From positions 80,924-144,923 of the forward strand of contig CAZEED010000002.1 of NCBI GenBank assembly GCA_964510945.1: a DNA stretch of 64,000 bases, read 5' to 3'. The position numbers and the translations under genes are program-made. Numbering within the stretch: the stretch's first letter is position 1; each line of letters starts with the position of its first letter. Shown piece by piece: positions 4,438 to 27,247 of the stretch. The stretch is from an uncultured Candidatus Saccharibacteria bacterium (GTDB lineage Bacteria; Patescibacteriota; Saccharimonadia; Saccharimonadales; JAGQNJ01). The notes below the pieces were generated by a model. The model was not told the origin of the DNA. It worked only from the letters and a program-made list of their open reading frames with translations, and did no database searches.

Positions 4438-4439
4438 AA

Positions 4440-5297: not shown

Positions 5298-5441
5298 CCC
5301 GTAGCGACCTTATGTGTTTTTATATAATTTGAGGGCATATTGTAACTAATACTCTTGGAAGTATGTTGATCAGTTTTTGTATTTTGTTGAGTTTTATCGG
5401 GATTCATTAGCTTGCCCACCAATAGGCGATTTTTAGTGTTA

Positions 5442-6413: not shown

Positions 6414-6486
6414 ACTTACATATTAGCAAAAGCGGAATAATTTTGTTTAGGAAAAACCAAGCCTCTAATATTAAAACTCAATTAAG

Positions 6487-7818: not shown

Positions 7819-7909
7819 GAGTGTATATTAACACAAGCTTTATCTATAGTCAATAGCATGATATAGGTTCAATATCTTGTATTAAACCTCACCAAATAAC
7901 GCTGTAATT

Positions 7910-9712: not shown

Positions 9713-9898
9713 ACTATTCCTTACTTACTGCTTGTCCTATTATCATAACTAGTCCGATAACCACAAGCAATACACTAGCTATATTCCTAAAGTAAGACCA
9801 AGCCTCCTTCAACCCATCATCATTAATCTCTGCCCTACCCACCTGCAACATATCAGCTATAGCATTAACCATAGAATCTACAGAAGAGTCGACGATAC
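9711..9898. repeat. 188-bp direct repeat, copy 1 (3-prime end of paralog A plus its stop and flank)
   Basis: Aligned by eye with 10555-10742. One mismatch (A at 9885 versus G at 10729). Similarity drops sharply beyond 9898. Confidence 0.9.
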
Positions 9899-10553
9899 TC
9901 AAGACTAAGCAGACTAGCCATGCACCCGGAAAATCAAAACTGTCTTCACACTTCGGCTCACTATCGTCGGTGCTTGCTGGTGGTGCGGTAGCGGATCCTG
10001 GGGCTTCTGGAGCTTCAACCGGATCCGGCACACCATCAGCATCATCATCAGTACGATCAACAAAATCTTCTGCTATTTCAGTATCGCCGATTGTAGGTTC
10101 TGTTTCGCCTACTGATCTGTCGAGTTTGTCTTTGGATACACGAATTCCTGCAGAATTACTGGAAGGCGAATTCAATAGGCTAGCAAATTGCCACTCGCTA
10201 TTTAGCATAAAATCATCAGAAGATAGAATAAATTGAGGGAGGTCATCTACTGTTTCGGCTCGTTGGTTTGGCCTACAATAAATATATAACCACTTTTTGC
10301 CGTTATCTTTTTTTCTCTTCAGCGTATCTACAAGAGGATTGTTTCCCCCAGCATCCTCTATTAAGTCAATATCTGCTTGAGTTGGGGTTCTCGTTACGTA
10401 TGCACAAGGAAAATCTGTCAAGACGTCTTCTAGGCTATCCAACGAGGGCTCTGCAAGCACAATCCTTGGCGAAAATATCAAGATAAACATCGGTGCTAAC
10501 ACTAAAAGTATCATGAGATAGCTTTGAAGTCTTTTTAAAATGATTTTGTTCAA
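9714..10553 (-). CDS. Secreted/membrane-anchored protein, paralog A: variable acidic ectodomain plus a conserved C-terminal two-helix module
   Basis: 279 aa, TTG start with a signal-peptide-like N-terminus (MNKIILKRLQSYLMILLVLAPMFILIFSPRIVLA). The C-terminal ~62 aa are identical to those of the next gene (...IVDSSVDSMVNAIADMLQVGRAEINDDGLKEAWSYFRNIASVLLVVIGLVMIIGQAVSKE). Confidence 0.7.
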   Translation of the reverse strand: MNKIILKRLQSYLMILLVLAPMFILIFSPRIVLAEPSLDSLEDVLTDFPCAYVTRTPTQADIDLIEDAGGNNPLVDTLKRKKDNGKKWLYIYCRPNQRAETVDDLPQFILSSDDFMLNSEWQFASLLNSPSSNSAGIRVSKDKLDRSVGETEPTIGDTEIAEDFVDRTDDDADGVPDPVEAPEAPGSATAPPASTDDSEPKCEDSFDFPGAWLVCLVLSIVDSSVDSMVNAIADMLQVGRAEINDDGLKEAWSYFRNIASVLLVVIGLVMIIGQAVSKE

Positions 10554-10554
10554 G

Positions 10555-10742
10555 ATACTATTCCTTACTTACTGCTTGTCCTATTATCATAACTAGTCCG
10601 ATAACCACAAGCAATACACTAGCTATATTCCTAAAGTAAGACCAAGCCTCCTTCAACCCATCATCATTAATCTCTGCCCTACCCACCTGCAACATATCAG
10701 CTATAGCATTAACCATAGAATCTACAGAGGAGTCGACGATAC
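10555..10742. repeat. 188-bp direct repeat, copy 2 (3-prime end of paralog B)
   Basis: Same as copy 1, offset 844 bp. Confidence 0.9.
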
Positions 10743-11670
10743 CGAGCACAAAACAAACAATAAATCCCCCGGTAAAATTAAATTGTTCATCGCAAGTCTT
10801 TGGGCTTTCCGGCACAGGTTGGCCAAGACCTAAATCTAATCCGTCACCACAGGCATCTACTGAAAAATCAGCTGGCCCCACAGTACGAACCACTCTTTTA
10901 TTACCCGTCATATTAAGATTGCCAGTATCGAGGAAGACTATATTCGTTCTACCACGACAATCTATTCTGGAATTGTAAAGTAACTCGTATGTATATTTGC
11001 CCGGGTCTACTCTTTTCATGTATTCTCTTTCGTTCGAGTTGATTCCAGTAGGAGTAAAAATAATCGGATCTCCACCACCTTCTGGAGTAATAGAAACTCT
11101 AACTAATTCTGCCTCAGAATCTGTTTTGGGGAATGGTGTTTTTTGCAGATTATTTTCTGGATCCAAAAACGAGAGCACAAAAGTTAACCTTACCTTGTTT
11201 TCTATCTCATCAGTTACATCGATGGTTGTTTCTTTATCGCGTCCACATTCATTGGTTAGATCCACATTTTTTGTAATCTCATCACCCCTACTTGTAGTTA
11301 CTGTTAGTGTGAATTTTGCAAATTCGGCAGTGAATATATCGTTTCCGCCTGTTTCACACCAACCCTTAATATCGATATTGGTAACCTCGAAGTGATCTTC
11401 GTGCCTAGATAGTTCATACGTACTTTCAACACCCTCTAGCTCATCTTGTCGGTCAATTCTTAAGGTTGCATCTGGGTCATCTGGTTCCAGGTAGACAATT
11501 AGCGCTGAATCTTGTGGGTCATCGGGATCTGCATGTCCTGCTGATACTTTATGAGTAGAAAATAATGTCACGCTGGCGACAGGCATTATTAGGGTAAACA
11601 TAAAAATGCTAAGAAACACTAAAATCCTAGACTCTATATTTTTAGATGGCTTTGTTTTGAATGACATCAT
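10558..11670 (-). CDS. Secreted/membrane-anchored protein, paralog B: different Cys-containing ectodomain plus the same C-terminal two-helix module
   Basis: 370 aa with an N-terminal signal/anchor (ILVFLSIFMFTLIMPVASVTLF). Shares the motif C-x-[DE]-x-F-[DN]-F-x-G-x-[WF]-[LI]-V-C and the identical C-terminus with paralog A. The N-terminal ~290 aa show no similarity to paralog A. Confidence 0.7.
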   Translation of the reverse strand: MMSFKTKPSKNIESRILVFLSIFMFTLIMPVASVTLFSTHKVSAGHADPDDPQDSALIVYLEPDDPDATLRIDRQDELEGVESTYELSRHEDHFEVTNIDIKGWCETGGNDIFTAEFAKFTLTVTTSRGDEITKNVDLTNECGRDKETTIDVTDEIENKVRLTFVLSFLDPENNLQKTPFPKTDSEAELVRVSITPEGGGDPIIFTPTGINSNEREYMKRVDPGKYTYELLYNSRIDCRGRTNIVFLDTGNLNMTGNKRVVRTVGPADFSVDACGDGLDLGLGQPVPESPKTCDEQFNFTGGFIVCFVLGIVDSSVDSMVNAIADMLQVGRAEINDDGLKEAWSYFRNIASVLLVVIGLVMIIGQAVSKE

Positions 11671-11736
11671 GCTTACGCTATAATTAAACCATCATCTATA
11701 TCAAAATAGTAATGTTTGTTACTGCACATCAAAAAA

Positions 11737-12318
11737 ATGAATCCGCAAAATCAAAAACCAGAAAACACTAATCCAGACCTTGATTTTATTCGTAATATCA
11801 CCGATCCATTAGAAGCGCCTGTAAAAAAAGGTTTAGATAAAAAGATTATCGTGATAATTGTTTTAGTGGTTATTACCATTGTCGTTATGGTGTTCGGGAT
11901 GATGACTGGCGCAAATAATAAAGTGCAGAAGTCTAGCAAAACCACTAATACATCAATTAGCAGCGATGCAAATGTATCTAAGGCAAAGGATACTCTAATA
12001 CAATATTTTGAATTGATGGCGCAAGGAAACCTCGAGGAAGCCTACAAGTTTTTCAGCGGTGATGCACCGATGACAAAAGAATTATTTGTAAAAGAGAATA
12101 GCACGCTACCAACACAACTAAACTTTTCTAGTTGTGAACCCGTAAGCTCAAACTCTGGATTGGTTGATAAAGAGGGTAAATTGATCCAAACATTTAGGTG
12201 TGATAGCAAGGATGGAAAACAAAGCATAGATTTTGAGTTTCATATGGATAGCTCGGATAACGGGAGTTTAACTATCCACGAGTATTTTATATATTGGCCA
12301 AACTTAGGAATAGAATGA
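11737..12318 (+). CDS. Hypothetical N-terminally membrane-anchored protein, first gene of the plus-strand pilin operon
   Basis: The ORF track starts at TTG 11716, but ATG at 11737 (MNPQNQKPENT...) is preferred. Single TM helix IIVIIVLVVITIVVMVFGMMTG followed by a small soluble domain. Confidence 0.6.
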   Translation: MNPQNQKPENTNPDLDFIRNITDPLEAPVKKGLDKKIIVIIVLVVITIVVMVFGMMTGANNKVQKSSKTTNTSISSDANVSKAKDTLIQYFELMAQGNLEEAYKFFSGDAPMTKELFVKENSTLPTQLNFSSCEPVSSNSGLVDKEGKLIQTFRCDSKDGKQSIDFEFHMDSSDNGSLTIHEYFIYWPNLGIE

Positions 12319-12349
12319 AATATAATATTACCCTAATGGATGCTAGCAA

Positions 12350-13054
12350 ATGATAAGAAGAATCTTTACCTTGTCGTTTCTATATACTTTCAGTGCTATT
12401 TTTATTAGTTCTGGATTACTAATGATGCTTTTCTCTGCCACAGTAATTGCAGAATCTTCAGATGTCTTTCATTTTACGTGCAGATCTCAAGATGGCTCCG
12501 AAGATGATGTTGTTTTAGGCCGAGGAAACCCACCTAAAATAAAATGCGCTACTAGGACTTCGACCCTAGGACGAGCAAATATAGGTCAAGATGACCCCGA
12601 TAACAAATACGATAGTTTTAGAATAACCTGTCAAACCGGAGAGCCAAAACTAAATATACTATCTACATTACCAGAGTGTTCAGACGGATCATCTCCGGTG
12701 GTAGAAGATCTTGACGAAGGTTCGCTAGCCGTTCCTCCTGTAGCGACTACACCTCCTGGCTCCGGGGGGGCTGCCACGGGTCGGTTTGAGTGCACGGGTG
12801 ATGCTTGTGTGACCGACAATCCGATCACAAGATTCTTGATAACCGTTGTTAACTTTTTAAGTGCACTGGTTGGAATAATAGTGATTGCTGTAATTATAAT
12901 AGCCGGGATTCAATACACAACATCAGGGGGGAACCCTCAACAAGCGGCGCAGGCGAAAAAACGAATTATTAATGCCGTCACGGCGCTAGTGGCCTTCTTT
13001 TTCTTGTTTGCGATTTTGCAGTGGTTGATACCAGGGGGTATATTTAAGTCATGA
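12350..13054 (+). CDS. VirB2/TrbC-like T4SS pilin paralog 1, with a ~150-aa extra N-terminal ectodomain
   Basis: The C-terminus LITVVNFLSALVGIIVIAVIIIAGIQYTTSGGNPQQAAQAKKRIINAVTALVAFFFLFAIL matches the two-helix pilin module shared by the next five genes. Cys pair FECTGDAC precedes it. Pro-rich linker VPPVATTPPGSGG. Confidence 0.7.
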   Translation: MIRRIFTLSFLYTFSAIFISSGLLMMLFSATVIAESSDVFHFTCRSQDGSEDDVVLGRGNPPKIKCATRTSTLGRANIGQDDPDNKYDSFRITCQTGEPKLNILSTLPECSDGSSPVVEDLDEGSLAVPPVATTPPGSGGAATGRFECTGDACVTDNPITRFLITVVNFLSALVGIIVIAVIIIAGIQYTTSGGNPQQAAQAKKRIINAVTALVAFFFLFAILQWLIPGGIFKS

Positions 13055-13431
13055 ATCTAATCCCTGCATTGCTATCTAGATTTGCTGCAGCTTGCCCTGA
13101 GCAATCAGTCTTTGGTATCCCGACTTGGTATAAATATTTGCCTGCAGAGACAGTTAACGGTGAATGTAAACTACTCGGTGATTTTGCTCAAAGTAAGTTG
13201 GACTCACTACTAGGTATTGGGCTGGCGATCACTGAGATATTACTTTTTATTGCCGGTTTTTTGGCTATCGTATACGTTGTCTACGGTGGGTTTCGCTACG
13301 TTTTAAGCCAAGGTGAGCCAGAGAATACAAAAATTGCTAAAGACGCTATTTTAAATGCGGTAATTGGGCTGGTTATTGCAGTACTTGCCAGCGCTATTGT
13401 TAGATTTATTGGGAATAGTATATCGACATGA
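13051..13431 (+). CDS. VirB2/TrbC-like T4SS pilin paralog 2
   Basis: 126 aa. Module is LLFIAGFLAIVYVVYGGFRYVLSQGEPENTKIAKDAILNAVIGLVIAVLASAIVRFI. ATGA overlap with the upstream gene. Confidence 0.7.
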   Translation: MNLIPALLSRFAAACPEQSVFGIPTWYKYLPAETVNGECKLLGDFAQSKLDSLLGIGLAITEILLFIAGFLAIVYVVYGGFRYVLSQGEPENTKIAKDAILNAVIGLVIAVLASAIVRFIGNSIST

Positions 13432-13742
13432 TCAACATCCAGTATCTGATGATTAGAGTTGCGCAGTTAATTCCAAATCCGGGCACTAAGTTACCGAATC
13501 AAAATGTGACCGAAGCTAGCCTGCAGACTACGATTGCTAATGTCTTTACGATTGTTTTTGGTGCATTGGGAGCTATCTCGGTGTTAATTATCACGCTAGC
13601 TGGCCTGCAGTACATCATGTCTGGTGGCGATCCAGCCAAGACTGCCAAGGCCAAAGATACCATTATGTACGCTGTAATTGGGTTAGTTGTGGCTGTTTCT
13701 GCGGGGGCGATTGTTAATTTTGTACTTAAGAAGGCGACTTAA
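13428..13742 (+). CDS. VirB2/TrbC-like T4SS pilin paralog 3
   Basis: 104 aa. Module is FGALGAISVLIITLAGLQYIMSGGDPAKTAKAKDTIMYAVIGLVVAVSAGAIVNFV. ATGA overlap with the upstream gene. No Cys pair and no obvious signal peptide. Confidence 0.65.
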   Translation: MINIQYLMIRVAQLIPNPGTKLPNQNVTEASLQTTIANVFTIVFGALGAISVLIITLAGLQYIMSGGDPAKTAKAKDTIMYAVIGLVVAVSAGAIVNFVLKKAT

Positions 13743-13746
13743 GAAT

Positions 13747-14127
13747 ATGCTGAGAAAACTCTCATTACTACTGCTAACAATTTTTAGTTGTTTTTATGTA
13801 GCGTTCCCAGCTGTAGTACTAGCGACTGATCCAATCGAACAAGTTTGCCAGATTAATCCAGATTCGTCGGTTTGTAAATCATCTACAACCGAAAATCCTA
13901 TATTTGGCTCAAAAGGCATAATAACTAGAATCACAAAAGTATTAGGGTTTGTTGTCGGAGTAGCCGCCGTGATCATGATTATTATCAACGGATTTAAGTT
14001 TGTGCTATCGAATGGCAATCCCGAGAATGTAACCAAGGCAAAGAACGGAATAATTTTTGCCATAATTGGGCTTTTGGTTGCCTTGTTTGCAGAGGCTATT
14101 GCAATTTTTGTAATGCAGAGGCTATAG
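13747..14127 (+). CDS. VirB2/TrbC-like T4SS pilin paralog 4
   Basis: The track ORF starts at 13687 and overlaps the previous gene. ATG 13747 gives a signal peptide MLRKLSLLLLTIFSCFYVAFPAVVLA, a Cys pair QVCQINPDSSVC, and the module VGVAAVIMIIINGFKFVLSNGNPENVTKAKNGIIFAIIGLL. Confidence 0.75.
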   Translation: MLRKLSLLLLTIFSCFYVAFPAVVLATDPIEQVCQINPDSSVCKSSTTENPIFGSKGIITRITKVLGFVVGVAAVIMIIINGFKFVLSNGNPENVTKAKNGIIFAIIGLLVALFAEAIAIFVMQRL

Positions 14128-14153
14128 TATTAACAGAAAAAAGGATAACAAAA

Positions 14154-14609
14154 ATGAACAAATCAAAAATCAAAAACATCTTTTTAAGCTTTATGCTCGT
14201 GCTGGGTATGATTACGCCAGTATCTTTTGCTATTCAATCTAATGCTTTTGCTTTGGTAGATGATACTCCAGCCGGTGATGGCATTGACCCAACCGCCGAG
14301 GTATCTTCGGCACAAAGCGATGTATGTAATGGAATCAAGGCCACCGGCGGGACATGTGATGATGCCCCAGGCGCCAAAACTGTCAAAGACATTATTGCAC
14401 TTGCAATCAATATTCTGAGCTTTATTGTCGGAGTAGCCGCCGTGATCATGATTATTATCAACGGATTTAAGTTTGTGACTTCTAGCGGGGAAACAGCGGC
14501 AGTGGCTAGCGCCAAGAACGGAATAATCTTTGCAGTTATTGGTTTGGTGGTGGTTGCTTTGGCTCAAGTAATTGTCAGATTCGTAGTTAATAGAGCGACT
14601 GGTCTATAG
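14154..14609 (+). CDS. VirB2/TrbC-like T4SS pilin paralog 5
   Basis: Signal peptide, Cys pair DVCNGIKATGGTC, and module VGVAAVIMIIINGFKFVTSSGETAAVASAKNGIIFAVIGLVV. Confidence 0.75.
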   Translation: MNKSKIKNIFLSFMLVLGMITPVSFAIQSNAFALVDDTPAGDGIDPTAEVSSAQSDVCNGIKATGGTCDDAPGAKTVKDIIALAINILSFIVGVAAVIMIIINGFKFVTSSGETAAVASAKNGIIFAVIGLVVVALAQVIVRFVVNRATGL

Positions 14610-14681
14610 ATACACTTGTATTGCGTATCAACAATGCTTATGATAAATTTAAACTAACAACAAACATAAGGAAACACACTA

Positions 14682-15101
14682 ATGAATAAACTTATCAAGC
14701 GAATAACTTTAACTACAATAGCTTTATTTACAATTTTAGCACCGGCAGGTCTTGCCGTCTCCCCAGTTTTTGCAGTTTCGGACGCTAATATCGATGATAA
14801 CCTATGTAAGGGTGCAAATCTTGATGTTACCGATGGTACCTGTTCTACTGATCCCGTAGAAGCACAACAGACTGTAAACGATATTATCGCAACCGTTATT
14901 AATATATTCTCGATCGTTGTTGGTGTAACAGCGGTGATTATGATAATTGTTGGAGGCTTTCAGTATATTACCTCTGGTGGTGATAGTGGTAAGGTGACGA
15001 CAGCCAAGAACACCATATTATTTGCGATAGTCGGTCTAGTTATAGTCGCGCTTGCTCAGGTAATAGTTAACTTTGTCCTATCAAAAGCCATAGACGTTTA
15101 A
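14682..15101 (+). CDS. VirB2/TrbC-like T4SS pilin paralog 6
   Basis: Signal peptide, Cys pair NLCKGANLDVTDGTC, and module VGVTAVIMIIVGGFQYITSGGDSGKVTTAKNTILFAIVGLVI. Confidence 0.75.
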   Translation: MNKLIKRITLTTIALFTILAPAGLAVSPVFAVSDANIDDNLCKGANLDVTDGTCSTDPVEAQQTVNDIIATVINIFSIVVGVTAVIMIIVGGFQYITSGGDSGKVTTAKNTILFAIVGLVIVALAQVIVNFVLSKAIDV

Positions 15102-16661: not shown

Positions 16662-16749
16662 GGAGAGGTGCAGGAGTGGTTGAACTGGCCGCTCTCGAAA
16701 AGCGGTAAGGCGTAAGCCTTCGTGGGTTCGAATCCCACCCTCTCCGCCA
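16662..16749 (+). tRNA. tRNA-Ser (anticodon CGA), CCA encoded
   Basis: Acceptor GGAGAGG/CCTCTCC, anticodon arm CCGCT-CTCGAAA-AGCGG, long variable arm, T-arm GTGGG-TTCGAAT-CCCAC, 3-prime GCCA. Confidence 0.9.
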
Positions 16750-16792: not shown

Positions 16793-16924
16793 AGAGTTCA
16801 AAGCCAACTGCTTGGCTTTGAAGGGATTCGAACAGTCGGAACGTAGTTTGCCGGTACTCGGCAAACCGTGAGACGAGCTCATGAGCAAATTGCAAAGCAA
16901 TTTGACTTGGGAGTCGTATATCCC
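16793..16924. ncRNA. Candidate structured RNA / tRNA-linked repeat, copy S-A (132 nt)
   Basis: Identical to 25902-26033 except for 5 substitutions confined to one hairpin. Helices: TTCAAAGCCAA/TTGGCTTTGAA, closing GGGAT/ATCCC, GTTTGCCG/CGGCAAAC, CAAATTGC/GCAATTTG. Single-stranded motifs AGTCGGAA (16834-16841) and TGAGACG (16869-16875). Strand undetermined. Confidence 0.55.
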
Positions 16925-16940
16925 ACCCTCTCCGCCAATA
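16920..16940 (+). repeat. 21-nt perfect duplicate of the tRNA-Ser(CGA) 3-prime end plus 3 flanking nt
   Basis: ATCCCACCCTCTCCGCCAATA occurs at 16732-16752 (within and just past the tRNA) and again at 16920-16940, a 188-bp period. Confidence 0.9.
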
Positions 16941-17030
16941 GATGTCCTGCATGTACCCCGCTCACCTAATTTAATTAACAAGCATATGCGCTATAATACG
17001 AAACATTAATAAGAATAAAACGAGGTAACT

Positions 17031-17621
17031 ATGGATCCAAACAATGCTCAAAATAATCAATCACCAACCCCAGTTAATCCCTCACCTATCCCTGGTGACG
17101 GCAATGATCCATCCCAACCAGTTATGCCCCCAGCTAATCAGTCACCTACATCTCAGGATGGTGGCAAAAAGAAGATGGTGATTATTGTGGTCGTTGTGCT
17201 TGTAGTATTGGCAGTAGTCGGTGCATTAGTTTTTGCCATGATGGGCAAAGATAGCGATAAGGATGCGACGCCAACAACACCAACACAAAACCAAGAAACG
17301 CCAGCTCAGACTGACGTAGCAGAGCCAGATAAAACAAGTGATTCTGATGCTCAATCTGGTGCCGTAGCCGTAACAATTAGTAATTTCGCATTTAGCCCGA
17401 GCACCATCAAGGTTAAAAAGGGCTCAACCGTAACTTGGACTAACAATGACAGTGCAGGCCACACCGTCACGTCAGATGATAATAGTGCCGTATCAGGATT
17501 AGATAGCGAATTAATCGCCCAAGGCAAGACCTTTTCGTTCACTTTTGATAAAGTTGGAGTCTACAGCTATCATTGCACGCCACACCCAAGTATGACCGGA
17601 ACCATTGAAGTCGTAGAATAG
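17031..17621 (+). CDS. Membrane-anchored cupredoxin (plastocyanin/amicyanin-like type-1 copper protein)
   Basis: Pro/Gln-rich N-terminus, TM helix MVIIVVVVLVVLAVVGALVFAMM, and a C-terminal domain with the copper ligand pattern GHTV ... YSYHCTPHPSMTG (His, Cys, His, Met). Confidence 0.85.
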   Translation: MDPNNAQNNQSPTPVNPSPIPGDGNDPSQPVMPPANQSPTSQDGGKKKMVIIVVVVLVVLAVVGALVFAMMGKDSDKDATPTTPTQNQETPAQTDVAEPDKTSDSDAQSGAVAVTISNFAFSPSTIKVKKGSTVTWTNNDSAGHTVTSDDNSAVSGLDSELIAQGKTFSFTFDKVGVYSYHCTPHPSMTGTIEVVE

Positions 17622-17685
17622 ACTGTTTTTAACTCACTATTCTGGCAATTTATGGGGCTACGTGTTAGTATGGCCTCTGTTATAT

Positions 17686-17741
17686 GTACCCGTAGCCTAA
17701 GCGTGATAGAGCGCATCCCTCAGGGTGGATGAGGCCAGAGG
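17686..17741 (+). pseudogene. 5-prime portion of a tRNA-Arg-like gene (acceptor through the T-stem 5-prime strand), with an 8-nt anticodon loop
   Basis: GTACCCGTAGCCTAAGCGTGATAGAGCGCATCC-CTCAGGGT-GGATGAGGCCAGAGG is collinear with positions 1-53 of the intact tRNA-Arg at 17890. It stops exactly where the T-loop should start. Confidence 0.7.
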
Positions 17742-17853
17742 CGAGAACAGCCCGATGGCTGTTCGCAGAGTCGGAAGCCTGGCGCAAATTATTGCCCAAG
17801 CTGAGACGGGGTCGCATAATTTGTTCAACAAACAAATATCTGCGACAGAATCC
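17742..17853. ncRNA. Candidate structured RNA, divergent member (R-up) of the S-element family
   Basis: Same order of elements as S-A and S-B. Hairpin GAACAGCC/GGCTGTTC, then AGTCGGAA (17769-17776), an imperfect hairpin GCCTGGCGCAA/TTGCCCAAGC, TGAGACG (17802-17808), and helix GTCGCA/TGCGAC enclosing hairpin ATTTGTT/AACAAAT. Spacing between the two motifs is 33 nt versus 35 nt in S. Confidence 0.5.
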
Positions 17854-17889
17854 TGATTCGAACCTTTACATGATAAATTTTGCAAATAT

Positions 17890-17966
17890 GTACCCGTAGC
17901 TCAGCTGGATAGAGCGCATCCTTGCGGAGGATGAGGCCAGAGGTTCGAATCCTCTCGGGTACACCA
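17890..17966 (+). tRNA. tRNA-Arg (anticodon GCG), CCA encoded
   Basis: Acceptor GTACCCG/CGGGTAC, D-arm GCTC-AGCTGGATA-GAGC, anticodon arm CATCC-TTGCGGA-GGATG, T-arm AGAGG-TTCGAAT-CCTCT, 3-prime ACCA. Confidence 0.9.
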
Positions 17967-18110
17967 TCCTCCGTCGTTTGCCTTTCTGGCAAACTATGAA
18001 GGTTTTTTTATTTGATTGAGGATTCGAGCCGATAGGCGAAAACAGTTGGGAACTGTTTGAGTTATAAATATTTCTAGCGAAATGCTTTAGCTCTTGAGCG
18101 GATAACATAA

Positions 18111-18133
18111 TTCGAATCTTCTCGGCTACACCA
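18111..18133 (+). pseudogene. 3-prime portion of a tRNA-Arg-like gene (T-loop, T-stem 3-prime strand, acceptor 3-prime strand, CCA)
   Basis: TTCGAAT-CTTCT-CGGCTAC-A-CCA. It pairs with the 5-prime fragment at 17686-17741: the T-stem gives 5/5 pairs including one G-U, and the acceptor gives 6/7 pairs. Confidence 0.65.
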
Positions 18134-18202
18134 AGTCCCTTAAGTTAATTGTTATTCTTAAATAGCTAACCTATACTCAATTATATAAATTATGGATTTA
18201 TA

Positions 18203-18886
18203 GTGAATAAACTAAATAAATATGGTTTTGGACTAGTCGAGATCATCTTGTTGATTACAATTATCGTTGCCTTAGGATTAATTGGCTATTATGTTTATTC
18301 TAACGCCCACATGAGTGATGAGGGCAATAAACCAATCAATGATGCTGATGCCTCTAGTCCCCAGACTACCGAATACGCAAATAAAGAATTTGGCTTTAAG
18401 TTTAGCTATCCAACACCTAGTGAGCGCGATGCTCCGGTAGTAAGTGATACAACTCCTAATGTTGGGCCGGTTTTGGGTAAATCCTACAGCATAACTCTTG
18501 AACCAAAATTTGTTGGCGGTTTTGTTACGAATAATTTTGCAATGGCACCAGATAAAGTTGACGAAATGCCACTAGGCTTTAGCCTCTATGATGGTTGTAG
18601 GCCCGATGATACCGTCCAAAAACAGGCTATTTTGTATAAATCTAAAGATGTTTGTGTAGTTGTGAATGCATCAGAAGAATTAGCGCCAGGCTCAGATGTA
18701 AAATCACTTTACGCTACCATGGTTGTTCAAAAAAAGTTTACAAAAAATGATCAGATTGCCGGCCTAGAGTTCGCTCGGTCACCCGTTGCGATAAAAAGTC
18801 TAGACAAAGCAAAACTAAAATTAACTTACGGCGAGCAGGTCAACAATGACACAACCGTCTTTGCAAAATCAATCCACGAATTGTAG
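18203..18886 (+). CDS. Protein with a prepilin-type (type IV pilin-like) N-terminal cleavage/methylation motif
   Basis: GTG start. MNKLNKYG/FGLVEIILLITIIVALGLIGYYVY fits the G-F-x-L-x-E class III signal followed by a hydrophobic helix. Confidence 0.6.
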   Translation: MNKLNKYGFGLVEIILLITIIVALGLIGYYVYSNAHMSDEGNKPINDADASSPQTTEYANKEFGFKFSYPTPSERDAPVVSDTTPNVGPVLGKSYSITLEPKFVGGFVTNNFAMAPDKVDEMPLGFSLYDGCRPDDTVQKQAILYKSKDVCVVVNASEELAPGSDVKSLYATMVVQKKFTKNDQIAGLEFARSPVAIKSLDKAKLKLTYGEQVNNDTTVFAKSIHEL

Positions 18887-18921
18887 ATCAAATCAAGGTA
18901 TTTGTGCAATAATCTATTAAT

Positions 18922-21213
18922 ATGTCTGATCAGTCAGAAGAAGATTTTACAGATCAAGAACAGTTACCTCGTATTAGGCTAGGGTATGAAAGTGCTCGGG
19001 AATTTATTAATGCGGCAGGTGATCAAACAAATGCAGTCCCGGAAGGCTCAGTTGTCATTGCTGAACCATATGTTGTTCAACCTGAAGATACCGAAACGGT
19101 TGTGGGGTCGTTGTTTGCGGTAGTTGAAGAAGGGGCGCCAGTTGCGAGCGATATTGCCACAGCTGGAAATGCCCGTATGGTAAATATTATCGAGGCGTTA
19201 TCTACTCCAGAAGTGTCTGATCTATTGGTCTCTCAAGGTATTCCTAGTGCCGTGAGTCTTTCAAAACTATTTTACAATGACGCTGTTATTGAGAAGAGAG
19301 ACGGTTATCCATACGATATGATTGGTACCAGACTCGAGCAAACTTTACCCACTGACGAGTATACTCGTCAGCAGAATGACCTTGTAACGAAACTTTTCGT
19401 GGAGACTTTAGCAAGTCTAGGAACAGATTTTGTAAAGATCCAGCCAATTATGCAAAAAGCTGAGACTGCAAGTCAAGCCTCAAGAAGGTCTCGTGAAGAT
19501 GTAGAGTTATTGACAGAAGAGATATTGTTAACTGCCGCCGATCAATTACGTAAAGATACTACGCTTAGCTCATCTGAATTAACATCGTCTGTCCATGTAT
19601 TAATTAATGCCTCTATGCAAGGGGGCGTCGCTGGTAGTCGTAGAGATAAAATACTGTCAACTGTGTTTGGAATACCCGAAGAACAGGCCAAACTTTTTTT
19701 GGACACCTCCCTGTCTATTAATCCAAATGCTTCAATTTTATTTGATGAGCGTGCTGTGAGTGTTTCAGAAACGGGTAGTAAGCTTGAGATTGATAGTTTG
19801 TTAAAATCGTTGTATACACAAGCGTTTCGTCAATCTTGGACCTTTTTATCTGATCAAAGATATTCATTAGATAAAATTACGGATACAACTAGATCACAAC
19901 TTTGGGAGTTTATTACATCAACTTCAGAGCTAGTTCAAGCAGTCGAGACTGACAACAGGACAACTCAATTACAGCAAAACCTTATGGAGATGGCTGGAAG
20001 GTTTTTTGCTGACGATAGCGACGTCTATAGCTCAGAAGAGCTAGGCTCGGTTGAATTTCAGGATGATCATCGTGCGTCAACTATAGAGCTACATGAAAAA
20101 CAGCCAAAAAAAGTTGAAGTAGACACTAACTTGCCTTCTGAGAGGTTGCTAGGAATCTTATCTAGGGTCACAAGCCGGGATAGAAGATTCTTAGTCGGCA
20201 GTGATCCCGCTATGGTCCAGTCGGATATTGAACAAATTGAATTGATCCGTGAAACACTTGTCGAGCGAGAGCCAGAATTAGAACAAACGATATTAGTTCG
20301 CCTAAGCCAGCATTTTATGGCGCTTGGCGGAGATTACCTTGCACTTGGCGAGGATGCGATTGAGGGGATTACTGACCAAAATGCCAGAGAAGCGTTAATA
20401 GAATCTATGGGCTATGCTCGTGCAATGGAAAGTGTTAGCTCGCAGGATGAGGCTAAGCTTCAGGCACAAAAAATATGTACAGATTCAGAGCCAACGGCTC
20501 GAGAGATGACTGAGGCACAACAAGCCCGTGCTGACCAGCTAGCGGAAAAAATACGCCAAGACGATTCTAGCTTGGTCCTACGGGTTGGTGATCCTGAGGT
20601 TTTGATTGACATTCTCTTTGGCGCAAAGCGGGTCAAATCTATGTGGGAAACTGCTATGACTAATGGTACGTCAACATACTCAATTGTTTTGGGATCTTCT
20701 GAAGGCCCAAGTTATTTACAAAGTCGAGTAACTGCCGAGCGCGCTATGGGGATTGCTGATCATATGGATCACCCTACTCTTATAGAGCCTGCCATTAGCA
20801 CATATATACGGCCGGGAGATGAACCTCCAGTTTCGACAGACGGCTATGGTTTTATCGAGATATCATTAAGGAAAGATGCTGTTCGTGATAGATCGGTGTA
20901 TGTTGATGGTGATTCCGCAAATCAAGCAAATAATGGTGAGCACAAATTTATGAGACTTGATGATGCTATTACTTCTGCGGCTGAGAAAAAAATCTTGGTG
21001 GAAGATGAAGTAATTGAAAGACCTGGTGGTCCCAAAGAACCAAAGGGCTGGGATTATGTTGAAGGATTGATTTTGGGCGGGGTGTCGCGAGATGATATTG
21101 GGCCTGAAATTCGCATATATACTGGTCGAGGCGAAATATCAAAACCGGAAGCTGAAAAGCTCGCGAAAATTATTACTGACCGTGATCCATCTATTAAAGT
21201 TACAATTATCTAA
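18922..21213 (+). CDS. Large acidic hypothetical protein (763 aa)
   Basis: Long ORF with no TM segment, signal peptide or motif recognised. Confidence 0.6.
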   Translation: MSDQSEEDFTDQEQLPRIRLGYESAREFINAAGDQTNAVPEGSVVIAEPYVVQPEDTETVVGSLFAVVEEGAPVASDIATAGNARMVNIIEALSTPEVSDLLVSQGIPSAVSLSKLFYNDAVIEKRDGYPYDMIGTRLEQTLPTDEYTRQQNDLVTKLFVETLASLGTDFVKIQPIMQKAETASQASRRSREDVELLTEEILLTAADQLRKDTTLSSSELTSSVHVLINASMQGGVAGSRRDKILSTVFGIPEEQAKLFLDTSLSINPNASILFDERAVSVSETGSKLEIDSLLKSLYTQAFRQSWTFLSDQRYSLDKITDTTRSQLWEFITSTSELVQAVETDNRTTQLQQNLMEMAGRFFADDSDVYSSEELGSVEFQDDHRASTIELHEKQPKKVEVDTNLPSERLLGILSRVTSRDRRFLVGSDPAMVQSDIEQIELIRETLVEREPELEQTILVRLSQHFMALGGDYLALGEDAIEGITDQNAREALIESMGYARAMESVSSQDEAKLQAQKICTDSEPTAREMTEAQQARADQLAEKIRQDDSSLVLRVGDPEVLIDILFGAKRVKSMWETAMTNGTSTYSIVLGSSEGPSYLQSRVTAERAMGIADHMDHPTLIEPAISTYIRPGDEPPVSTDGYGFIEISLRKDAVRDRSVYVDGDSANQANNGEHKFMRLDDAITSAAEKKILVEDEVIERPGGPKEPKGWDYVEGLILGGVSRDDIGPEIRIYTGRGEISKPEAEKLAKIITDRDPSIKVTII

Positions 21214-23985: not shown

Positions 23986-24755
23986 ATATGAACGAAGTAA
24001 TTATTCAATCCGCAGTAATTGTCTGGGTGTATATGACGCTTTGGTCTATTTACGCCATCGTTAATAAACGTAACGATGTTGCTGATTTCGCATGGGGCCT
24101 TGGTTTTCCAGTTCTGGCAATGATCCTACTCCAAATTAACTCATCTACATCCGTAAAAGCTTTACTGATAACAATGCTAATATCGATATGGGGTATCCGG
24201 CTGGCCCTTCATATTTATCCTCGGCTTAGTAAAAAACATGAAGATTTTCGTTATGATCAGATGCGCTTAAAGTGGGGTAAATCCGCTAATATCAGATCAT
24301 ATTTTCAAGTATTTATGCTACAAGGTTTATTTTTGCTTCTTATTAGCGCTTCGACCATGGTTGCGGTGAATGGTAGTGAAACGTTTTTTAATATCAACGC
24401 TGTTGGTATTGCGGTGTGGGTTATTGGCTTTTTGTTCGAATCTATCGGTGATTATCAGCTTAGTCGTTTTATCAAGAATCCTGCCAACAAGGGAAAAGTT
24501 ATGACTGAAGGCCTATGGAGATATACGCGTCACCCCAACTATTTTGGCGAAATTACTCAGTGGTGGGGTATATGGTTGATTGTAATTGGTGCTACGAATT
24601 GGCAATTTGCCATAATTAGCCCAATAACAATTACCATTTTGATATATTTTGTATCGGGTGTACCACTGTTAGAGAAAAAGTACAAAGACAACCATGCCTA
24701 TAAAGAATATGCAAAAAAGACTAGCAAATTCTTTCCCCTTCCCCCTCGTAAATAA
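23982..24755 (+). CDS. DUF1295 / steroid-5-alpha-reductase-like membrane protein
   Basis: [14 protein letters not shown] motif in a polytopic protein. Confidence 0.75.
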
Positions 24756-25647: not shown

Positions 25648-25715
25648 AAGCACATTCTACATTGCATTAACAAATACTGGAAGAGTTGTCTTGGGTGTTC
25701 ATGTGAGATTTCCTC

Positions 25716-25759: not shown

Positions 25760-25852
25760 GGAGAGGTACCCAAGTGGCTGAAGGGGACGGTTTGCTAAAT
25801 CGTTAGTGGGGCGCAAGTTCCAGCGAGGGTTCGAATCCCTCCCTCTCCGCCA
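25760..25852 (+). tRNA. tRNA-Ser (anticodon GCU), CCA encoded
   Basis: Acceptor GGAGAGG/CCTCTCC, anticodon arm ACGGT-TTGCTAA-ATCGT, long variable arm, T-arm GAGGG-TTCGAAT-CCCTC. Confidence 0.9.
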
Positions 25853-25901: not shown

Positions 25902-26033
25902 AGAGTTCAAAGCCAACTGCTTGGCTTTGAAGGGATTCGAACAGTCGGAACGTAGTTTGCCGGTACTCGGCAAACCGTGAGACGAGCTCATGAGCAAATT
26001 ATGGAGTAATTTGACTTGGGAGTCGTATATCCC
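25902..26033. ncRNA. Candidate structured RNA / tRNA-linked repeat, copy S-B (132 nt)
   Basis: See copy S-A. The only differences (GCAAAGC versus ATGGAGT within CAAATT...AATTTG) keep the hairpin paired. Confidence 0.55.
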
Positions 26034-26058
26034 GACACTATAAATAGGCTTAGGCCTC

Positions 26059-26078: not shown

Positions 26079-26168
26079 GGAGAGGTGCCCGAGTGGTTGA
26101 AGGGACCGGTCTTGAAAACCGGCAGGCCCGCAAGGGTCTCGTGGGTTCGAATCCCACCCTCTCCGCCA
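26079..26168 (+). tRNA. tRNA-Ser (anticodon UGA), CCA encoded
   Basis: Acceptor GGAGAGG/CCTCTCC, anticodon arm CCGGT-CTTGAAA-ACCGG, long variable arm, T-arm GTGGG-TTCGAAT-CCCAC. Confidence 0.9.
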
Positions 26169-26197
26169 TCCTTGGTAGCGAAGCCATCTAGGCTTAG

Positions 26198-27247
26198 TTA
26201 TGAAGGATTTTTTTGATCAAGATTTAATGGTGTTTTGTTTTCTACTGGTATTTTCGGCTTTAGTCTATTAATGAAGATTGTGAAGATAATAACGCCTATT
26301 ACGCCGATTATTAACAGAGTAATTCCAGAATTTTGCAAAATCCGTGCCCAGTCTGAGAAGATGGTTTCTGCTAGTTTTTTGAGCGACTCTATCGGTGCTT
26401 GGCTAGAGTTGTCACTGGTGGTTGGCATTAGATTGCTGATTGAAAATCTTAACATTATGGCTGAAATAGTCAGAAAGACCCCTGTAATTAGTAGAGTCAC
26501 ACTCCCCTTTCTGGCTCCATGAAGTTTCGTTTTGCTCAGCATTACAACCCCAACCAAACTGATAATCAGCAATATAAATGCGTAGGGAAAGATCTTTTCA
26601 ACAAGTTGAAAAAGTTTAGGTATAGTCTCTGGCGTGTTCTCGTTAATTGGCGCCGAAAAGCCCAGATCCTCGGCTTCTTTATTAGTTAGGCTCCCATCGC
26701 TGGTTGTGCTGTCAGAGAACACATCGTTATTGAGGTTAGCTTGGTCAATTGCTTCATCAATTAATTGATTAACGTTAGTACCGCTTGGGATGCAGTCAAT
26801 ATTACTGATATCTTCAAGATTAGGGATCTGCCCGTAGGCACAAGTTGGGAGTGTTTTGGCTCGCACTTTCAAAGCCTTAGAATACGTACTAACGAAAGAA
26901 TCTTTAATCTTGTCGATATTAATAACTATTTTCGGTGTTTTTGTCTCTCCGTTAAGCCAAGCGTAGCTGGCATCAATAACAGGATTGGCAATCTTTTGAA
27001 TATTTTCTGGTGAGGCTGCGGTCGCGATGGATTTGGCTAATAATTTGTTACTGGGATCATCTTTGGTGGCCTGTTTGACAATAATTTTGCTTGTCTCTAT
27101 ATATAGACCTGATTCAGTAATAGAATTTGCTAGATATTCCTTGTCGCCAATCGTGTGATGAAAGCTATATACAAACACTAATGTGTAAATCGCCGGTGCT
27201 AAAAGCCCAACAGACAAAATTAAACCGATTTTTTTCAGGATATTCAC
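26198..27247 (-). CDS. Hypothetical membrane protein (N-terminal anchor, ~200-aa ectodomain, C-terminal multi-TM region)
   Basis: 349-aa ORF with a GTG start. No motif. Confidence 0.6.
   Translation of the reverse strand: MNILKKIGLILSVGLLAPAIYTLVFVYSFHHTIGDKEYLANSITESGLYIETSKIIVKQATKDDPSNKLLAKSIATAASPENIQKIANPVIDASYAWLNGETKTPKIVINIDKIKDSFVSTYSKALKVRAKTLPTCAYGQIPNLEDISNIDCIPSGTNVNQLIDEAIDQANLNNDVFSDSTTSDGSLTNKEAEDLGFSAPINENTPETIPKLFQLVEKIFPYAFILLIISLVGVVMLSKTKLHGARKGSVTLLITGVFLTISAIMLRFSISNLMPTTSDNSSQAPIESLKKLAETIFSDWARILQNSGITLLIIGVIGVIIFTIFINRLKPKIPVENKTPLNLDQKNPS

Follow-up and report, generated by a model that had tools for sequence, protein, structure and literature searches.

A tRNA-Arg(GCG) gene flanked by tRNA-Arg fragments and candidate structured RNA modules in a Saccharibacteria genome

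Tyrosine integrases are known to integrate into the T-loop region of tRNA genes, GOLLD and ROOL are large bacterial non-coding RNAs that adjoin or embed tRNA genes, and rRNA intervening sequences are cut out by RNase III without religation. Tandem direct repeats at ssrA that arose by serial island integration are described in Dehalococcoides (PMC3146451). Group I introns are frequent in the tRNAs of Patescibacteria, and an insertion near the 3′ end of tmRNA has been mentioned (PMC13011429). Split, permuted and multi-intron tRNA genes occur in archaea (Nanoarchaeum and Thermoproteales) and also in red-alga nucleomorphs (reviewed in PMC3978253).

The locus described here belongs to an uncultured Saccharibacteria bacterium and lies in a window of 64,000 nucleotides, which is the whole stretch of DNA that was analysed. 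An intact tRNA-Arg(GCG) gene is enclosed by two segments, R-up and R-down, and these in turn by two outer pieces of tRNA-Arg. The initial annotation read the arrangement as a tRNA-Arg gene split at its T-loop by a 369-bp mobile cassette carrying a replacement tRNA. We propose, with about even confidence, that it consists of one working tRNA-Arg(GCG) flanked by two separately acquired T-loop module units, and that the outer halves are non-functional. The features of the locus are as follows.

17674–17685, plus strand: promoter-like box CCTCTGTTATAT, directly adjoining the outer 5′ half (sequence)
17686–17741, plus strand: outer 5′ fragment, a decayed tRNA-Arg copy collinear with tRNA-Arg positions 1–53 (alignment)
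17742–17867, plus strand: R-up module (conservation, fold, shared motifs)
17868–17889, plus strand: linker ACATGATAAATTTTGCAAATAT with a possible extended −10 box (TGATAAAT), joining R-up to the working gene
17890–17966, plus strand: intact working tRNA-Arg(GCG) with encoded CCA (ARAGORN; Rfam tRNA, 68.4 bits)
17967–18009, plus strand: compound hairpin (TCCTCCGTCG, GTTTGCC/GGCAAAC, CTATGAAGG) followed by a T run, terminator-like (fold)
18018–18110, plus strand: R-down module (conservation, predicted fold, shared motifs)
18111–18133, plus strand: outer 3′ fragment, consisting of T-loop TTCGAAT, T-stem 3′ strand CTTCT, acceptor 3′ strand CGGCTAC, A and CCA

The working gene and its outer fragments

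The outer 5′ fragment contains the acceptor 5′ strand, the D-arm, an anticodon arm with an 8-nt loop (CTCAGGGT), the variable loop and the T-stem 5′ strand AGAGG. It aligns to positions 1–54 of the intact gene with two 1-nt insertions and five mismatches, which lie in the D-loop and the anticodon loop. The 3′ fragment (TTCGAATCTTCTCGGCTACACCA) is identical to the 3′ end of the intact gene at 21 of 23 positions. Local alignment to tRNA-Arg gave scores of 36 for the 5′ half and 19 for the 3′ piece, against a background of 6.7 ± 1.8 for 60-nt tiles covering the whole window on both strands, among which no unrelated tile exceeded 16; the two pieces are therefore genuine tRNA-Arg fragments. They pair with each other at all five T-stem positions (AGAGG/CTTCT, including one G-U) and at six of seven acceptor positions (GTACCCG/CGGCTAC, with one C-C mismatch), and both breakpoints lie inside the T-loop. 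The initial annotation was accurate on the coordinates of the halves, their pairing, the 8-nt loop and the breakpoints, as well as on the promoter-like box and on the intact gene between the halves, which is the sole tRNA called there. ARAGORN called neither half in place, and the Rfam tRNA model gave no call on 17686–17741 or 18111–18133, even at E ≤ 10.

When the window halves were joined in silico, ARAGORN at a relaxed threshold returned a cloverleaf whose ‘anticodon’ has four bases (cagg) and whose D-stem is weakened, having one mismatch and one G-U. This joined molecule lacks the 7-nt anticodon loop, the intact D-arm and the full acceptor pairing of a canonical tRNA. The outer 5′ half is conserved in DAISWO01 (84% identity) and CAZPAW01 (93%), and the 12–23 mismatch of the D-stem and the loss of the D-loop GG are common to all three 5′ halves; the 8-nt anticodon loop is found in the window and in CAZPAW01. 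In the acceptor, the outer copy has a C-C mismatch in the window and C-A in DAISWO01, with compensation in neither. The joined halves of DAISWO01 give an Arg(gcg) tRNA with one acceptor mismatch, and the anticodon loop of its outer 5′ half is the same as that of its inner gene, which fits gene conversion. ARAGORN and the Rfam tmRNA models called no tmRNA in the window; the sequence GGATTCGA is one that we take to resemble the 5′ region of tmRNA.

All 77 bases of the inner gene are matched in DAISWO01 and CAZPAW01, the CAZPAW01 row having one extra alignment base. The core of the box that adjoins the outer 5′ half, CTCTGTTATA, also lies 5′ of tRNA-Ser(GCT) at 25713 and tRNA-Ser(TGA) at 26056 in the window, and related CCCCTGTT boxes lie 5′ of tRNA units in the loci L069, L135 and L138; the box may be a promoter. 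Another candidate promoter is the linker, which is 77–86% conserved and retains the motif TG.TAA(A/C)(T/C)T in three species. The hairpin that follows the gene is 73% identical in DAISWO01, where GCTGAC/GTCAGC takes the place of GTTTGCC/GGCAAAC in a compensatory manner. A simple, generic promoter and terminator scan did not list this hairpin and was uninformative.

A family of modules beside tRNA genes

R-up begins with CGAGAAC and proceeds through a P1 hairpin (GAACAGCC/GGCTGTTC), TTCGCAGAGTCGGAAG, a P2 hairpin, CTGAGACGG and a long P3 hairpin to an end composed of TTCGAA (17857–17862) and CCTTT (17863–17867), the latter being predicted to form a closing helix with AGAGG of the 5′ half. It is 94.4% and 92.9% identical in two other species, while its flanks are approximately 40% identical in the same alignment, and its fold z-score is −3.9. 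R-down runs from the T-stem-5′-like GAGGA and TTCGA through GCCGATAGG, CGAAAAC, a P1 hairpin (AAAACAGTT/AACTGTTT) and a second hairpin to CTTGAGCGGATAACATAA, and in its predicted fold GAGGATTCGA pairs with TTCGAATCTTC of the 3′ fragment. It is 95.7% identical in DAISWO01 and missing from CAZPAW01, and its end motifs, TTCG.GC.G.TAG.CGA and GAGCGGA, also occur in modules of L135 and L141. That the modules are 94–96% identical between species while the hairpin enclosed by them is only 73% identical points to purifying selection on the modules and away from a recently moved cassette, although the high identity of the modules could partly reflect horizontal spread or concerted evolution instead of function.

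Two related S modules are present elsewhere in the window.

16793–16924, running into 16921–16937, plus strand: S module copy 1, 3′ of tRNA-Ser(CGA) and its terminator (repeats, covariance model)
25902–26033, plus strand: S module copy 2, 3′ of tRNA-Ser(GCT) and its terminator (repeats, covariance model)

Copy 1 leads into TCCCACCCTCTCCGCCA (16921–16937), an exact 17-nt copy of the tRNA-Ser(CGA) 3′ end, and no tRNA 3′ end follows copy 2. The two copies are 96% identical and score 156.7 and 156.1 bits, respectively, with the S covariance model; the core of copy 2 is 99% identical to the DAISWO01 copy at the same tRNA. R-up carries TTCGNANAGTCGGAA..TGAGACG, a pattern common to the S elements (three matches in the window versus none expected), and matches the S-module covariance model weakly (17.3 bits). 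The initial annotation rightly saw a likeness to an S element where the R-down segment starts, and this likeness is due to homology; P1, which follows YGARAAC, can be aligned across R-up, R-down and the modules of L069, L019 and L011. As judged from these shared sequences, R-up, R-down and the S modules of the window are one family.

Covariation and the G-U pairs of the S modules, which lie on the tRNA strand, support RNA structure. In the S modules, 98.8% of cells are paired and 13 pairs have changed on both sides, compared to 7.3 ± 1.6 in shuffles (0 of 500), and slid controls reached at most 49% pairing. These values come from an S-only alignment with a hand-drawn structure, since RNAalifold missed the structure in a mixed S and R-up alignment in which P3 was misaligned. 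In R-up/R-down-type modules P1 is 98.2% paired, with five of eight pairs changed on both sides (0 of 500 shuffles). All 12 of the U/D-type modules that were folded gave multi-hairpin structures, most of them closed end to end by T-stem strands, and the S modules have the closing helix GGGA/TCCC. Each module (90–130 nt, three or four hairpins) is thus predicted to fold into a multi-hairpin domain whose closing helix is made of the two T-stem strands from a partial copy of the adjacent tRNA. P1 and core have been swapped between S subtypes, indicating recombination among modules. Covariation gives good support to the modules as a candidate new family of structured RNA, and no published description of them was found in the literature.

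In the window and 13 related loci, searches with the S covariance model and module motifs found copies only beside tRNA genes or tRNA fragments. The tRNA pieces at the modules always match the neighbouring tRNA, and their breakpoints are always in the T-loop. Module loci with such local pieces include tRNA-Ser(CGA) and tRNA-Ser(GCT) in the window, tRNA-Ser(TGA) in DAISWO01 and tRNA-Arg(TCT) in L087, where the unit has an exact 19-nt 3′ copy; the Ser and Arg(TCT) loci have downstream units only. In the distant relative L141, the module at tRNA-Ser(GCT) has the closing strands GGAG/CTCC, which are a copy of the local T-stem (GGGAG/CTCCC), and an exact 18-nt 3′ copy comes after it. Tandem arrays are found in DAISWO01 and L019. 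Nearly all of the partial T-arm copies observed carry a module, which hints that T-arm duplication and module insertion are mechanistically coupled. A relaxed module pattern matched 111 loci in metagenome contigs, the real ones being only L023, L069 and L087.

Several other identities for the modules were considered and rejected. A dispersed repeat of the MITE or IS type does not fit copies that occur only beside tRNAs or their fragments and in which convincing terminal inverted repeats were not seen. No consensus match to hammerhead or hairpin ribozyme cores or to group II domain V was apparent on inspection, and the Rfam scans were negative. Pairing of a tRNA-like acceptor helix within the S RNAs was inconsistent across copies, and a minus-strand, retroviral-type primer-binding site disagrees with the G-U pairs, which suggest that the plus strand is the structured one.

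Origin of the nested arrangement

The comparison draws on a small sample of about seven lineages, and breaks at these repeats are common among their contigs. Contigs from six relatives or near relatives end within approximately 60–230 nt of the genes flanking these loci, which suggests that metagenome assemblies of the clade are broken up by the repeats. Searches with the 763-aa neighbouring protein found no related locus in genome contigs, and the exact tRNA-Arg(GCG) pattern had no match in metagenome contigs. Where the locus is preserved, its two sides occur apart. In CAZPAW01 the tRNA is preceded by the 5′ half and R-up, and neither R-down nor the 3′ fragment is present. Conversely, tRNA-Arg(GCG) of L135 has a downstream module, built on the local T-stem CACAAG/CTTGT, and an exact local 3′ end, without a 5′ half or R-up. 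DAISWO01 has one upstream unit and two different downstream units in tandem, its 3′ fragment being a 23/23 exact copy that is present twice, and tRNA-Arg(GCG) and tRNA-Ser(CGA) of L141 are bare. These arrangements argue that the 369 bp did not enter as one inserted unit. The cassette reading of the initial annotation therefore stands in part: the fragments are genuine, with T-loop breakpoints and with relatives of the S element between them, and a nested tRNA-Tyr exists elsewhere, while a single 369-bp unit is not supported at this locus.

We propose that the local tRNA was partly copied in each unit, and that the T-stem strands of the copy close a 90–130-nt RNA domain in place of the 7-nt T-loop. 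The upstream unit would have kept the tRNA body (positions 1–53) and lost the acceptor 3′ strand, and the downstream unit would retain only a T-stem-5′-like stub, the T-loop, the 3′ strands of T-stem and acceptor, and CCA. A gene with both kinds of unit beside it would then look like a tRNA interrupted by 369 bp of inserted DNA. Such partial copies could arise by recombination in T-loop/T-stem sequence that is common to tRNA and module, either through unequal or short-homology exchange or through a site-specific recombinase. The modules may form leader and trailer domains of the tRNA transcript. Functional tRNA-Arg(GCG) would come from the inner gene alone, and the outer pieces would be by-products whose decay is slowed by occasional gene conversion from that gene. 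The role of the modules could lie in maturation or stability of the tRNA transcript, in tRNA mimicry or binding, or in selfish persistence in the T-loop. The coupling of T-arm duplication to module insertion hinted at above is left unexplained by this two-unit model.

More tentatively, we suggest that the R and S modules may form a class of structured RNA elements, not described before, that reside in T-loops in Saccharibacteria, each being either a self-propagating T-loop invader or a functional tRNA-mimicking leader/trailer matched to the cognate tRNA. In the former case, the tRNA-Tyr locus of metagenome contig L069 suggests that the element would at least sometimes travel as a cassette with a replacement tRNA. 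The nested layout is repeated there, and the outer halves pair at seven of seven acceptor positions (GCTGGGG/CCCCAGC), the only case of perfect complementarity, and when joined they form a well-formed tRNA-Tyr cloverleaf with a fully paired acceptor stem. The inner tRNA-Tyr has GCAGGGA/TCCCTGC, differing at two base pairs, and is only roughly 60% like the outer halves, as estimated by eye. The outer halves were thus once one gene, distinct from the inner tRNA-Tyr. Local duplication does not predict this locus, for which the simplest explanation is insertion in a single step or an inner gene that was replaced later. A search for relatives of this locus with its flanking protein found one contig, which breaks 66 nt upstream of the gene, and one protein to which no contig is assigned.

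The Arg locus itself could likewise be the product of a single insertion, in which a cassette of module, linker, tRNA, hairpin and second module used its T-arm-like ends to recombine with the T-loop of a resident cognate gene, although we consider this unlikely. Because the cassette would replace the tRNA destroyed by its insertion, only insertions into cognate genes would survive, and both nested cases are indeed cognate (Arg in Arg, Tyr in Tyr). The placement of both breakpoints in the T-loop, a module conservation across species that would suffice for homology arms, and the 7/7 pairing and good joined cloverleaf of the L069 halves, which differ from the inner gene in the body as well as at the two acceptor pairs, agree with such an event. 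It is opposed by the separate occurrence of the two sides in relatives, by the second downstream unit of DAISWO01, by the Ser and Arg(TCT) loci with downstream units only, and by the divergence of the inner hairpin (73%) relative to the modules, which indicates that the block was not recently transferred. In addition, no free copy of the 369-bp block, or copy at another site, was found in genome, metagenome or viral scans.

Slightly less probable is the idea that the fragments are fossil attachment sites, left when integrase-bearing islands or prophages repeatedly entered tRNA T-loops and were lost, with remnants of their arms. Integration into this region is, as noted, known behaviour of tyrosine integrases, and direct repeats of tRNA 3′ ends, exact or nearly so, do lie 3′ of intact genes (21/23 in the window, 23/23 twice in DAISWO01, and exact at the Ser, Arg(TCT) and L135 Arg loci), in tandem arrays in DAISWO01 and L019. 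In an attR, however, the foreign DNA lies outside an intact T-arm, whereas here the module is inside the T-arm copy, between the T-stem strands, and 5′ fragments are present too. Relics should also decay, but the modules are 94–99% conserved and show RNA-type covariation with G-U pairs. Pfam recognised no integrase, transposase, resolvase or reverse transcriptase among 60 ORFs of the 64-kb window (a recombinase elsewhere in the genome is possible). Three pattern scans of viral contigs found no module homologue, the single match (L021) being a chance one inside a coding region, and BLAST against phage and plasmid sequences matched only the tRNA portions.

It is very doubtful that the outer halves form a functional interrupted tRNA, expressed and joined or used as two pieces, with the modules as a T-loop intron or other excised sequence and the inner tRNA as a passenger. 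The joined halves do fold as cloverleaves, that of L069 being well formed and paired throughout its acceptor stem; T-stems close the modules, as they might an intron or intervening sequence; and group I introns are common in Patescibacteria tRNAs, an insertion near the tmRNA 3′ end also being mentioned (PMC13011429). Nevertheless, the window copy has an 8-nt anticodon loop, a weak D-stem, no D-loop GG and an uncompensated C-C pair, DAISWO01 has a different uncompensated mismatch, and CAZPAW01 lacks the 3′ half altogether; on these grounds a nested or unusually processed transcript, which the initial annotation had ranked second, is unlikely as a functional split tRNA. The promoter-like box adjoins position 1, so that transcripts may miss part of the acceptor 5′ strand, each unit has a complete closing helix of its own, and L069 differs in its 3′ fragment from a contig whose flanking gene encodes a 95% identical product. 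Rfam scans of the whole window at the gathering threshold, and of 17500–18300 and L069 4400–5200 at E ≤ 10, returned only tRNAs and noise, with no match to Intron_gpI or to any other intron or ribozyme family. It is equally improbable that tRNA-Arg was simply duplicated in tandem and that the outer copies then decayed independently: all pieces have the same orientation and resemble the inner gene, but decay leaves unexplained the constant T-loop breakpoints, the conserved, covarying modules common to the Ser, Tyr and Arg(TCT) loci, and the 94–96% module identity beside flanks of approximately 40%.

Significance and comparison with known systems

Saccharibacteria have tiny genomes and tend to shed non-essential DNA, yet several tRNA genes here carry 100–200 nt of non-coding sequence that is conserved almost like the tRNAs themselves, which suggests that tRNA genes are tied either to a function not yet recognised or to a highly successful selfish element. 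The module-linked tRNA-like fragments are a possible source of error in tRNA annotation, in the counting of pseudogenes and in attachment-site searches. If the cassette reading were true, it would represent horizontal replacement of a tRNA gene within its own coding sequence, and a selfish T-loop invader or a tRNA-mimicking leader/trailer would be a new kind of bacterial tRNA-linked genetic element.

Among known systems, integrase attachment remnants at tRNA genes and ssrA (the T-loop sublocation class; for tandem repeats in Dehalococcoides, PMC3146451) resemble this locus in that an intact tRNA is followed by a 3′-end repeat starting in the T-loop. In both, tandem arrays are possible and the fragment sequence follows the local tRNA. 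The present loci differ in that the foreign sequence lies between the T-stem strands of the copy, is 90–190 nt long, highly conserved and RNA-structured, and is accompanied by 5′ fragments, with no integrase gene and no phage or plasmid homologue found. Group I introns of the bacterial tRNA anticodon loop (PMC13011429) offer an example, in the same phylum, of a structured RNA interrupting a tRNA-like gene, and the one near the tmRNA 3′ end is a precedent for interruption of the T-loop region. Modules of 90–130 nt are nonetheless too small for a P3–P9 core of approximately 200 nt or more, do not match Intron_gpI or other Rfam models, and interrupt partial copies beside an intact gene.

Split tRNAs of the archaeal type also have halves encoded apart, with complementary acceptor strands and possible interruptions in the T-arm region. 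Here the host is a bacterium, the window halves are decayed, an intact cognate gene lies between them, one half is dispensable in a relative, and the mismatches are uncompensated, so that the halves are not co-evolving in the window or DAISWO01. Like rRNA intervening sequences, the modules are helix-closed, structured insertions in a conserved loop of a stable RNA, except that their host is a non-functional partial tRNA copy. Finally, the modules share with GOLLD and ROOL the properties of a conserved, structured RNA that is physically tied to tRNA genes, but they are much smaller, do not match those Rfam families, and are built on partial T-arm copies of the neighbouring tRNA.

Outer tRNA-Arg pieces and the tRNA genes around them

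The window is part of a Candidatus Saccharibacteria chromosome; public assemblies contain near-identical contigs, and its closest named relatives are Saccharibacteria MAGs. It is core chromosome, with a type IV secretion (T4SS) cluster, ArgRS, GroEL, DnaG, RpoD and others, as well as a Val/Ile/Leu-type aminoacyl-tRNA synthetase of class I. ARAGORN and Rfam both place four tRNA genes in it, all on the + strand:

16662-16749, + strand, tRNA-Ser(CGA)
17890-17966, + strand, tRNA-Arg(GCG)
25760-25852, + strand, tRNA-Ser(GCT)
26079-26168, + strand, tRNA-Ser(TGA)

The tRNA-Arg, which serves CGN codons, has the anticodon GCG and not ACG, the usual bacterial anticodon in this arginine tRNA, which might go with a lack of A34-to-inosine editing in the lineage. 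The T4SS cluster (2509-15101; TraG-like ATPase, PrgI-like protein) includes six or more paralogous pilin genes arranged in an array, and its synteny with HSP20 and ComFC is kept in all relatives compared.

Re-reading of 17000-19000 bore out the coordinates of the initial annotation exactly, including a 5′ half (17686-17741) that matches positions 1-53 of tRNA-Arg in order, collinear with the intact gene, and a 3′ fragment (18111-18133, TTCGAATCTTCTCGGCTACACCA) spanning T-loop to CCA. Aligned locally to the intact gene, the two pieces score 36 and 19, respectively, above the window-wide background of 6.7 ± 1.8, and they pair as had been described, 5/5 in the T-stem (one G-U) and 6/7 in the acceptor (one C-C). 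The 5′ half does have an 8-nt anticodon loop (17716-17723, CTCAGGGT; CTCATGGA at locus L015 of the related genome CAZPAW01).

In this clade tRNA units are preceded by a CYCTGTT box (window form CCTCTGTTATAAT, at 17675, 25713 and 26056), found also ahead of tRNA transcription units at L069, L135 and L138, loci of relatives. With 8 window matches against 2.5 expected, three of the eight preceding tRNA units, the box looks like a lineage-specific promoter element of the extended −10 type. It abuts position 1 of the 5′ half, which would probably place the start of transcription within the acceptor strand. Directly 3′ of CCA, several tRNAs carry a compound hairpin (17967-18009 and 26169-26214; also in L015 after tRNA-Ser(CGA), in L069 after tRNA-Tyr, and in L133), ordered TCCTYCGTCG, inner hairpin, (A/T)AGCTATGRAGGA and T run; the inner hairpin is variable and the outer CCTCC/GGAGG pairing constant across tRNAs and species.

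A family of structured modules

The segments between the outer pieces, R-up (upstream of the intact gene) and R-down (downstream), belong to one repeat family with an S element elsewhere in the window, to which the start of the downstream segment had been likened. The 132-nt S element occurs twice (96% identity), each copy 3′ of a tRNA-Ser and terminator; copy 1 (16793-16937) leads into 17 nt that reproduce the local tRNA-Ser 3′ end exactly, and after copy 2 (25902-26033) comes the tRNA-Ser(TGA) promoter. R-up and S share the motif TTCGNANAGTCGGAA-hairpin-TGAGACG (3 window matches vs 0 expected), and a T-loop-like GATTCGARC is present in all S, R-up and R-down segments (9 matches vs about 1 expected: four tRNAs, four modules, one ORF). 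Every covariance-model match to S lies next to a tRNA gene or a tRNA fragment. S modules are mosaic, and the exchange of P1 and core between two subtypes shows recombination among copies. A separate 25-nt direct repeat (24429-24453 and 26376-26400, 84% identity), whose first copy sits within a DUF1295 ORF and includes a T-loop-like GTTCGAATC, is probably due to chance.

Eight aligned S modules were scored against a hand-drawn structure consisting of P1, GGGA/UCCC as the closing helix (formed by T-stem strands), a small hairpin, P2, and P3 plus P3a. Paired cells reached 98.8%, and 13 pairs had both sides changed, compared with 7.3 ± 1.6 in shuffles (0/500); slid controls gave at most 49% pairing and at most two such pairs. 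Several G-U pairs would become C-A mismatches on the opposite strand. This marks the modules as structured RNA of the same strand as the tRNA genes. The first hairpin after YGARAAC aligns among R-up, R-down and the L011, L019 and L069 modules, with 98.2% pairing and both sides changed in 5/8 pairs (0/500 shuffles). Each of the 12 U/D-type modules folds into a multi-hairpin domain, in most cases closed end to end by its own T-stem strands. Fold z-scores are −3.9 for R-up, whose structure relies on three sequences that are very similar and on support at the level of the family, and −5.0 for an S module.

Conservation and separability in relatives

A motif search for the family recovered two other Saccharibacteria species from the genome collection, DAISWO01 (L011, L013, L019) and CAZPAW01 (L015), and three real metagenome loci (L023, L069, L087); the distribution of the family rests on about seven lineages. 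DNA identity to the window is 77-87% in flanking genes and 90-94% at the Arg locus.

Segment identity, window and DAISWO01
Upstream flank: 41%
5′ half: 84%
R-up: 94%
Linker: 86%
tRNA-Arg: 100%
Hairpin after tRNA: 73%
R-down: 96%
3′ fragment: 91%
Downstream flank: 39%

The hairpin 3′ of tRNA-Arg has diverged with compensatory changes (GTTTGCC/GGCAAAC in the window, GCTGAC/GTCAGC in DAISWO01) while the modules are 94-96% identical, and therefore the modules themselves are constrained; judged from these comparisons, the block from R-up to R-down is as a whole not simply young. Between the same two genomes (18020-18032 compared with 18123-18127), the R-down 5′ end changes from GATTCGAACC in DAISWO01 to GATTCGAGCC in the window and the 3′ fragment from CGGGTAC to CGGCTAC, jointly creating AGCCG/CGGCU complementarity, which in two sequences only may be an alternative pairing or coincidence.

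Relatives were ranked by protein identity of ComFC, encoded upstream of tRNA-Ser(CGA).

The tRNA-Arg(GCG) locus in relatives, with ComFC identity
DAISWO01, 77%: 5′ half, R-up, tRNA-Arg(GCG), then two downstream modules that differ from each other, both with an exact tRNA 3′-end copy at their end
CAZPAW01, 70%: 5′ half, R-up, tRNA-Arg(GCG), then directly promoter and next gene; lacks R-down and 3′ fragment
L135, 57%: unrelated leader at tRNA-Arg(GCG); lacks 5′ half and R-up
L141, 35%: bare tRNA-Arg(GCG)

After its terminator, L135 has a module between local T-stem strands (CACAAG ... CTTGT), then the exact local 3′ end. In L141 tRNA-Ser(CGA) is also bare, and tRNA-Ser(GCT) is followed by an L135-type module, closed by a local T-stem copy GGAG/CTCC (from GGGAG/CTCCC), and the exact local 3′ end. 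Stepwise, independent gain of an upstream unit (5′ half plus R-up) and one or more downstream units (module plus 3′ fragment) is the simplest history.

Units of this kind occur at other tRNAs. At L087 tRNA-Arg(TCT) is followed by an S-type module that ends with the tRNA's own 3′ end, copied exactly over 19 nt. L019 (2180-2570, DAISWO01 contig 2) is an array without an intact tRNA: a short CCA-ending fragment, hairpin, module with tRNA-Ser-like 3′ end (CGAATCCCTCTCTCTCCGCCA), terminator and S module. At L133 (5880-6096; ComFC 82% identical) a tRNA-Ser(CGA) plus module unit is inverted relative to ComFC. Many related contigs stop at or near these repeats: L133, L134, L137, L138 and L140 run on for 60-230 nt past ComFC, and L139 breaks off 66 nt upstream of the gene next to the tRNA-Tyr locus of L069, positions where the window or L069 carries tRNA and module repeats, which may fragment metagenome assemblies of this clade.

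Origin of the nested layout

We propose, at about an even chance, that the units are partial copies of the local tRNA in which the T-arm now serves as closing helix for a conserved RNA domain. The tRNA body would be retained in upstream units and the 3′ end in downstream ones, and the window's apparent split tRNA would be one of each around the working gene. Such copies could arise by recombination within shared T-loop/T-stem sequence, proposed because it fits the invariant breakpoint, the DAISWO01/L019 tandem arrays (3′ end, terminator, module) and the tracking of the local tRNA by the fragments.

The initial annotation had instead favored insertion, in one step, of a cassette carrying a replacement tRNA, which we now regard as unlikely. 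It finds its strongest evidence at L069, where the layout is complete at tRNA-Tyr: 5′ body to T-stem 5′ strand, module, linker, intact tRNA-Tyr, hairpin, S-type module and Tyr-type 3′ end. The outer acceptor strands (GCTGGGG, CCCCAGC) pair 7/7 and differ by two base pairs from the inner ones (GCAGGGA/TCCCTGC), and the outer body is well formed, resembling the inner only distantly. This pattern would also fit if the inner gene had been replaced later, between the conserved modules. A contig whose flanking-gene product shares 95% identity with the L069 one stops at the repeat and has a different 3′ fragment. At the Arg locus, however, the two sides are separable in relatives, and there the one-step account is not supported.

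That the pieces are classical attachment-site fossils is a doubtful idea; exact tRNA 3′-end copies recur, the 64-kb window has no recognisable gene for an integrase, transposase or reverse transcriptase, and no module homologues were found in viral contigs, phage genomes or plasmids. A functional interrupted tRNA is very improbable: the outer halves joined in silico give a cloverleaf at a relaxed threshold, but with a four-base 'anticodon' and weak D-stem, and neither half is called in place by ARAGORN or Rfam. Acceptor mismatches are uncompensated and differ between species, D-arm damage is common to three species, and two of them have an anticodon loop of 8 nt, the third having one identical to the inner gene's, which would fit gene conversion. 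Together the outer pieces do not make a functional tRNA; the probable start of transcription inside the acceptor strand points the same way. Plain duplication and decay, with the modules conserved as described, is equally remote.

The modules matched no Rfam family, introns, ribozymes, tmRNA and large non-coding RNAs included, and a literature search found no description of them. Formally, the 8-nt loop amounts to a four-base anticodon, as in frameshift-suppressor tRNAs; it is probably decay, because the remainder of the outer copy is damaged. The nearest published case to the modules is that of group I introns in anticodon loops of Patescibacteria tRNAs (PMC13011429).
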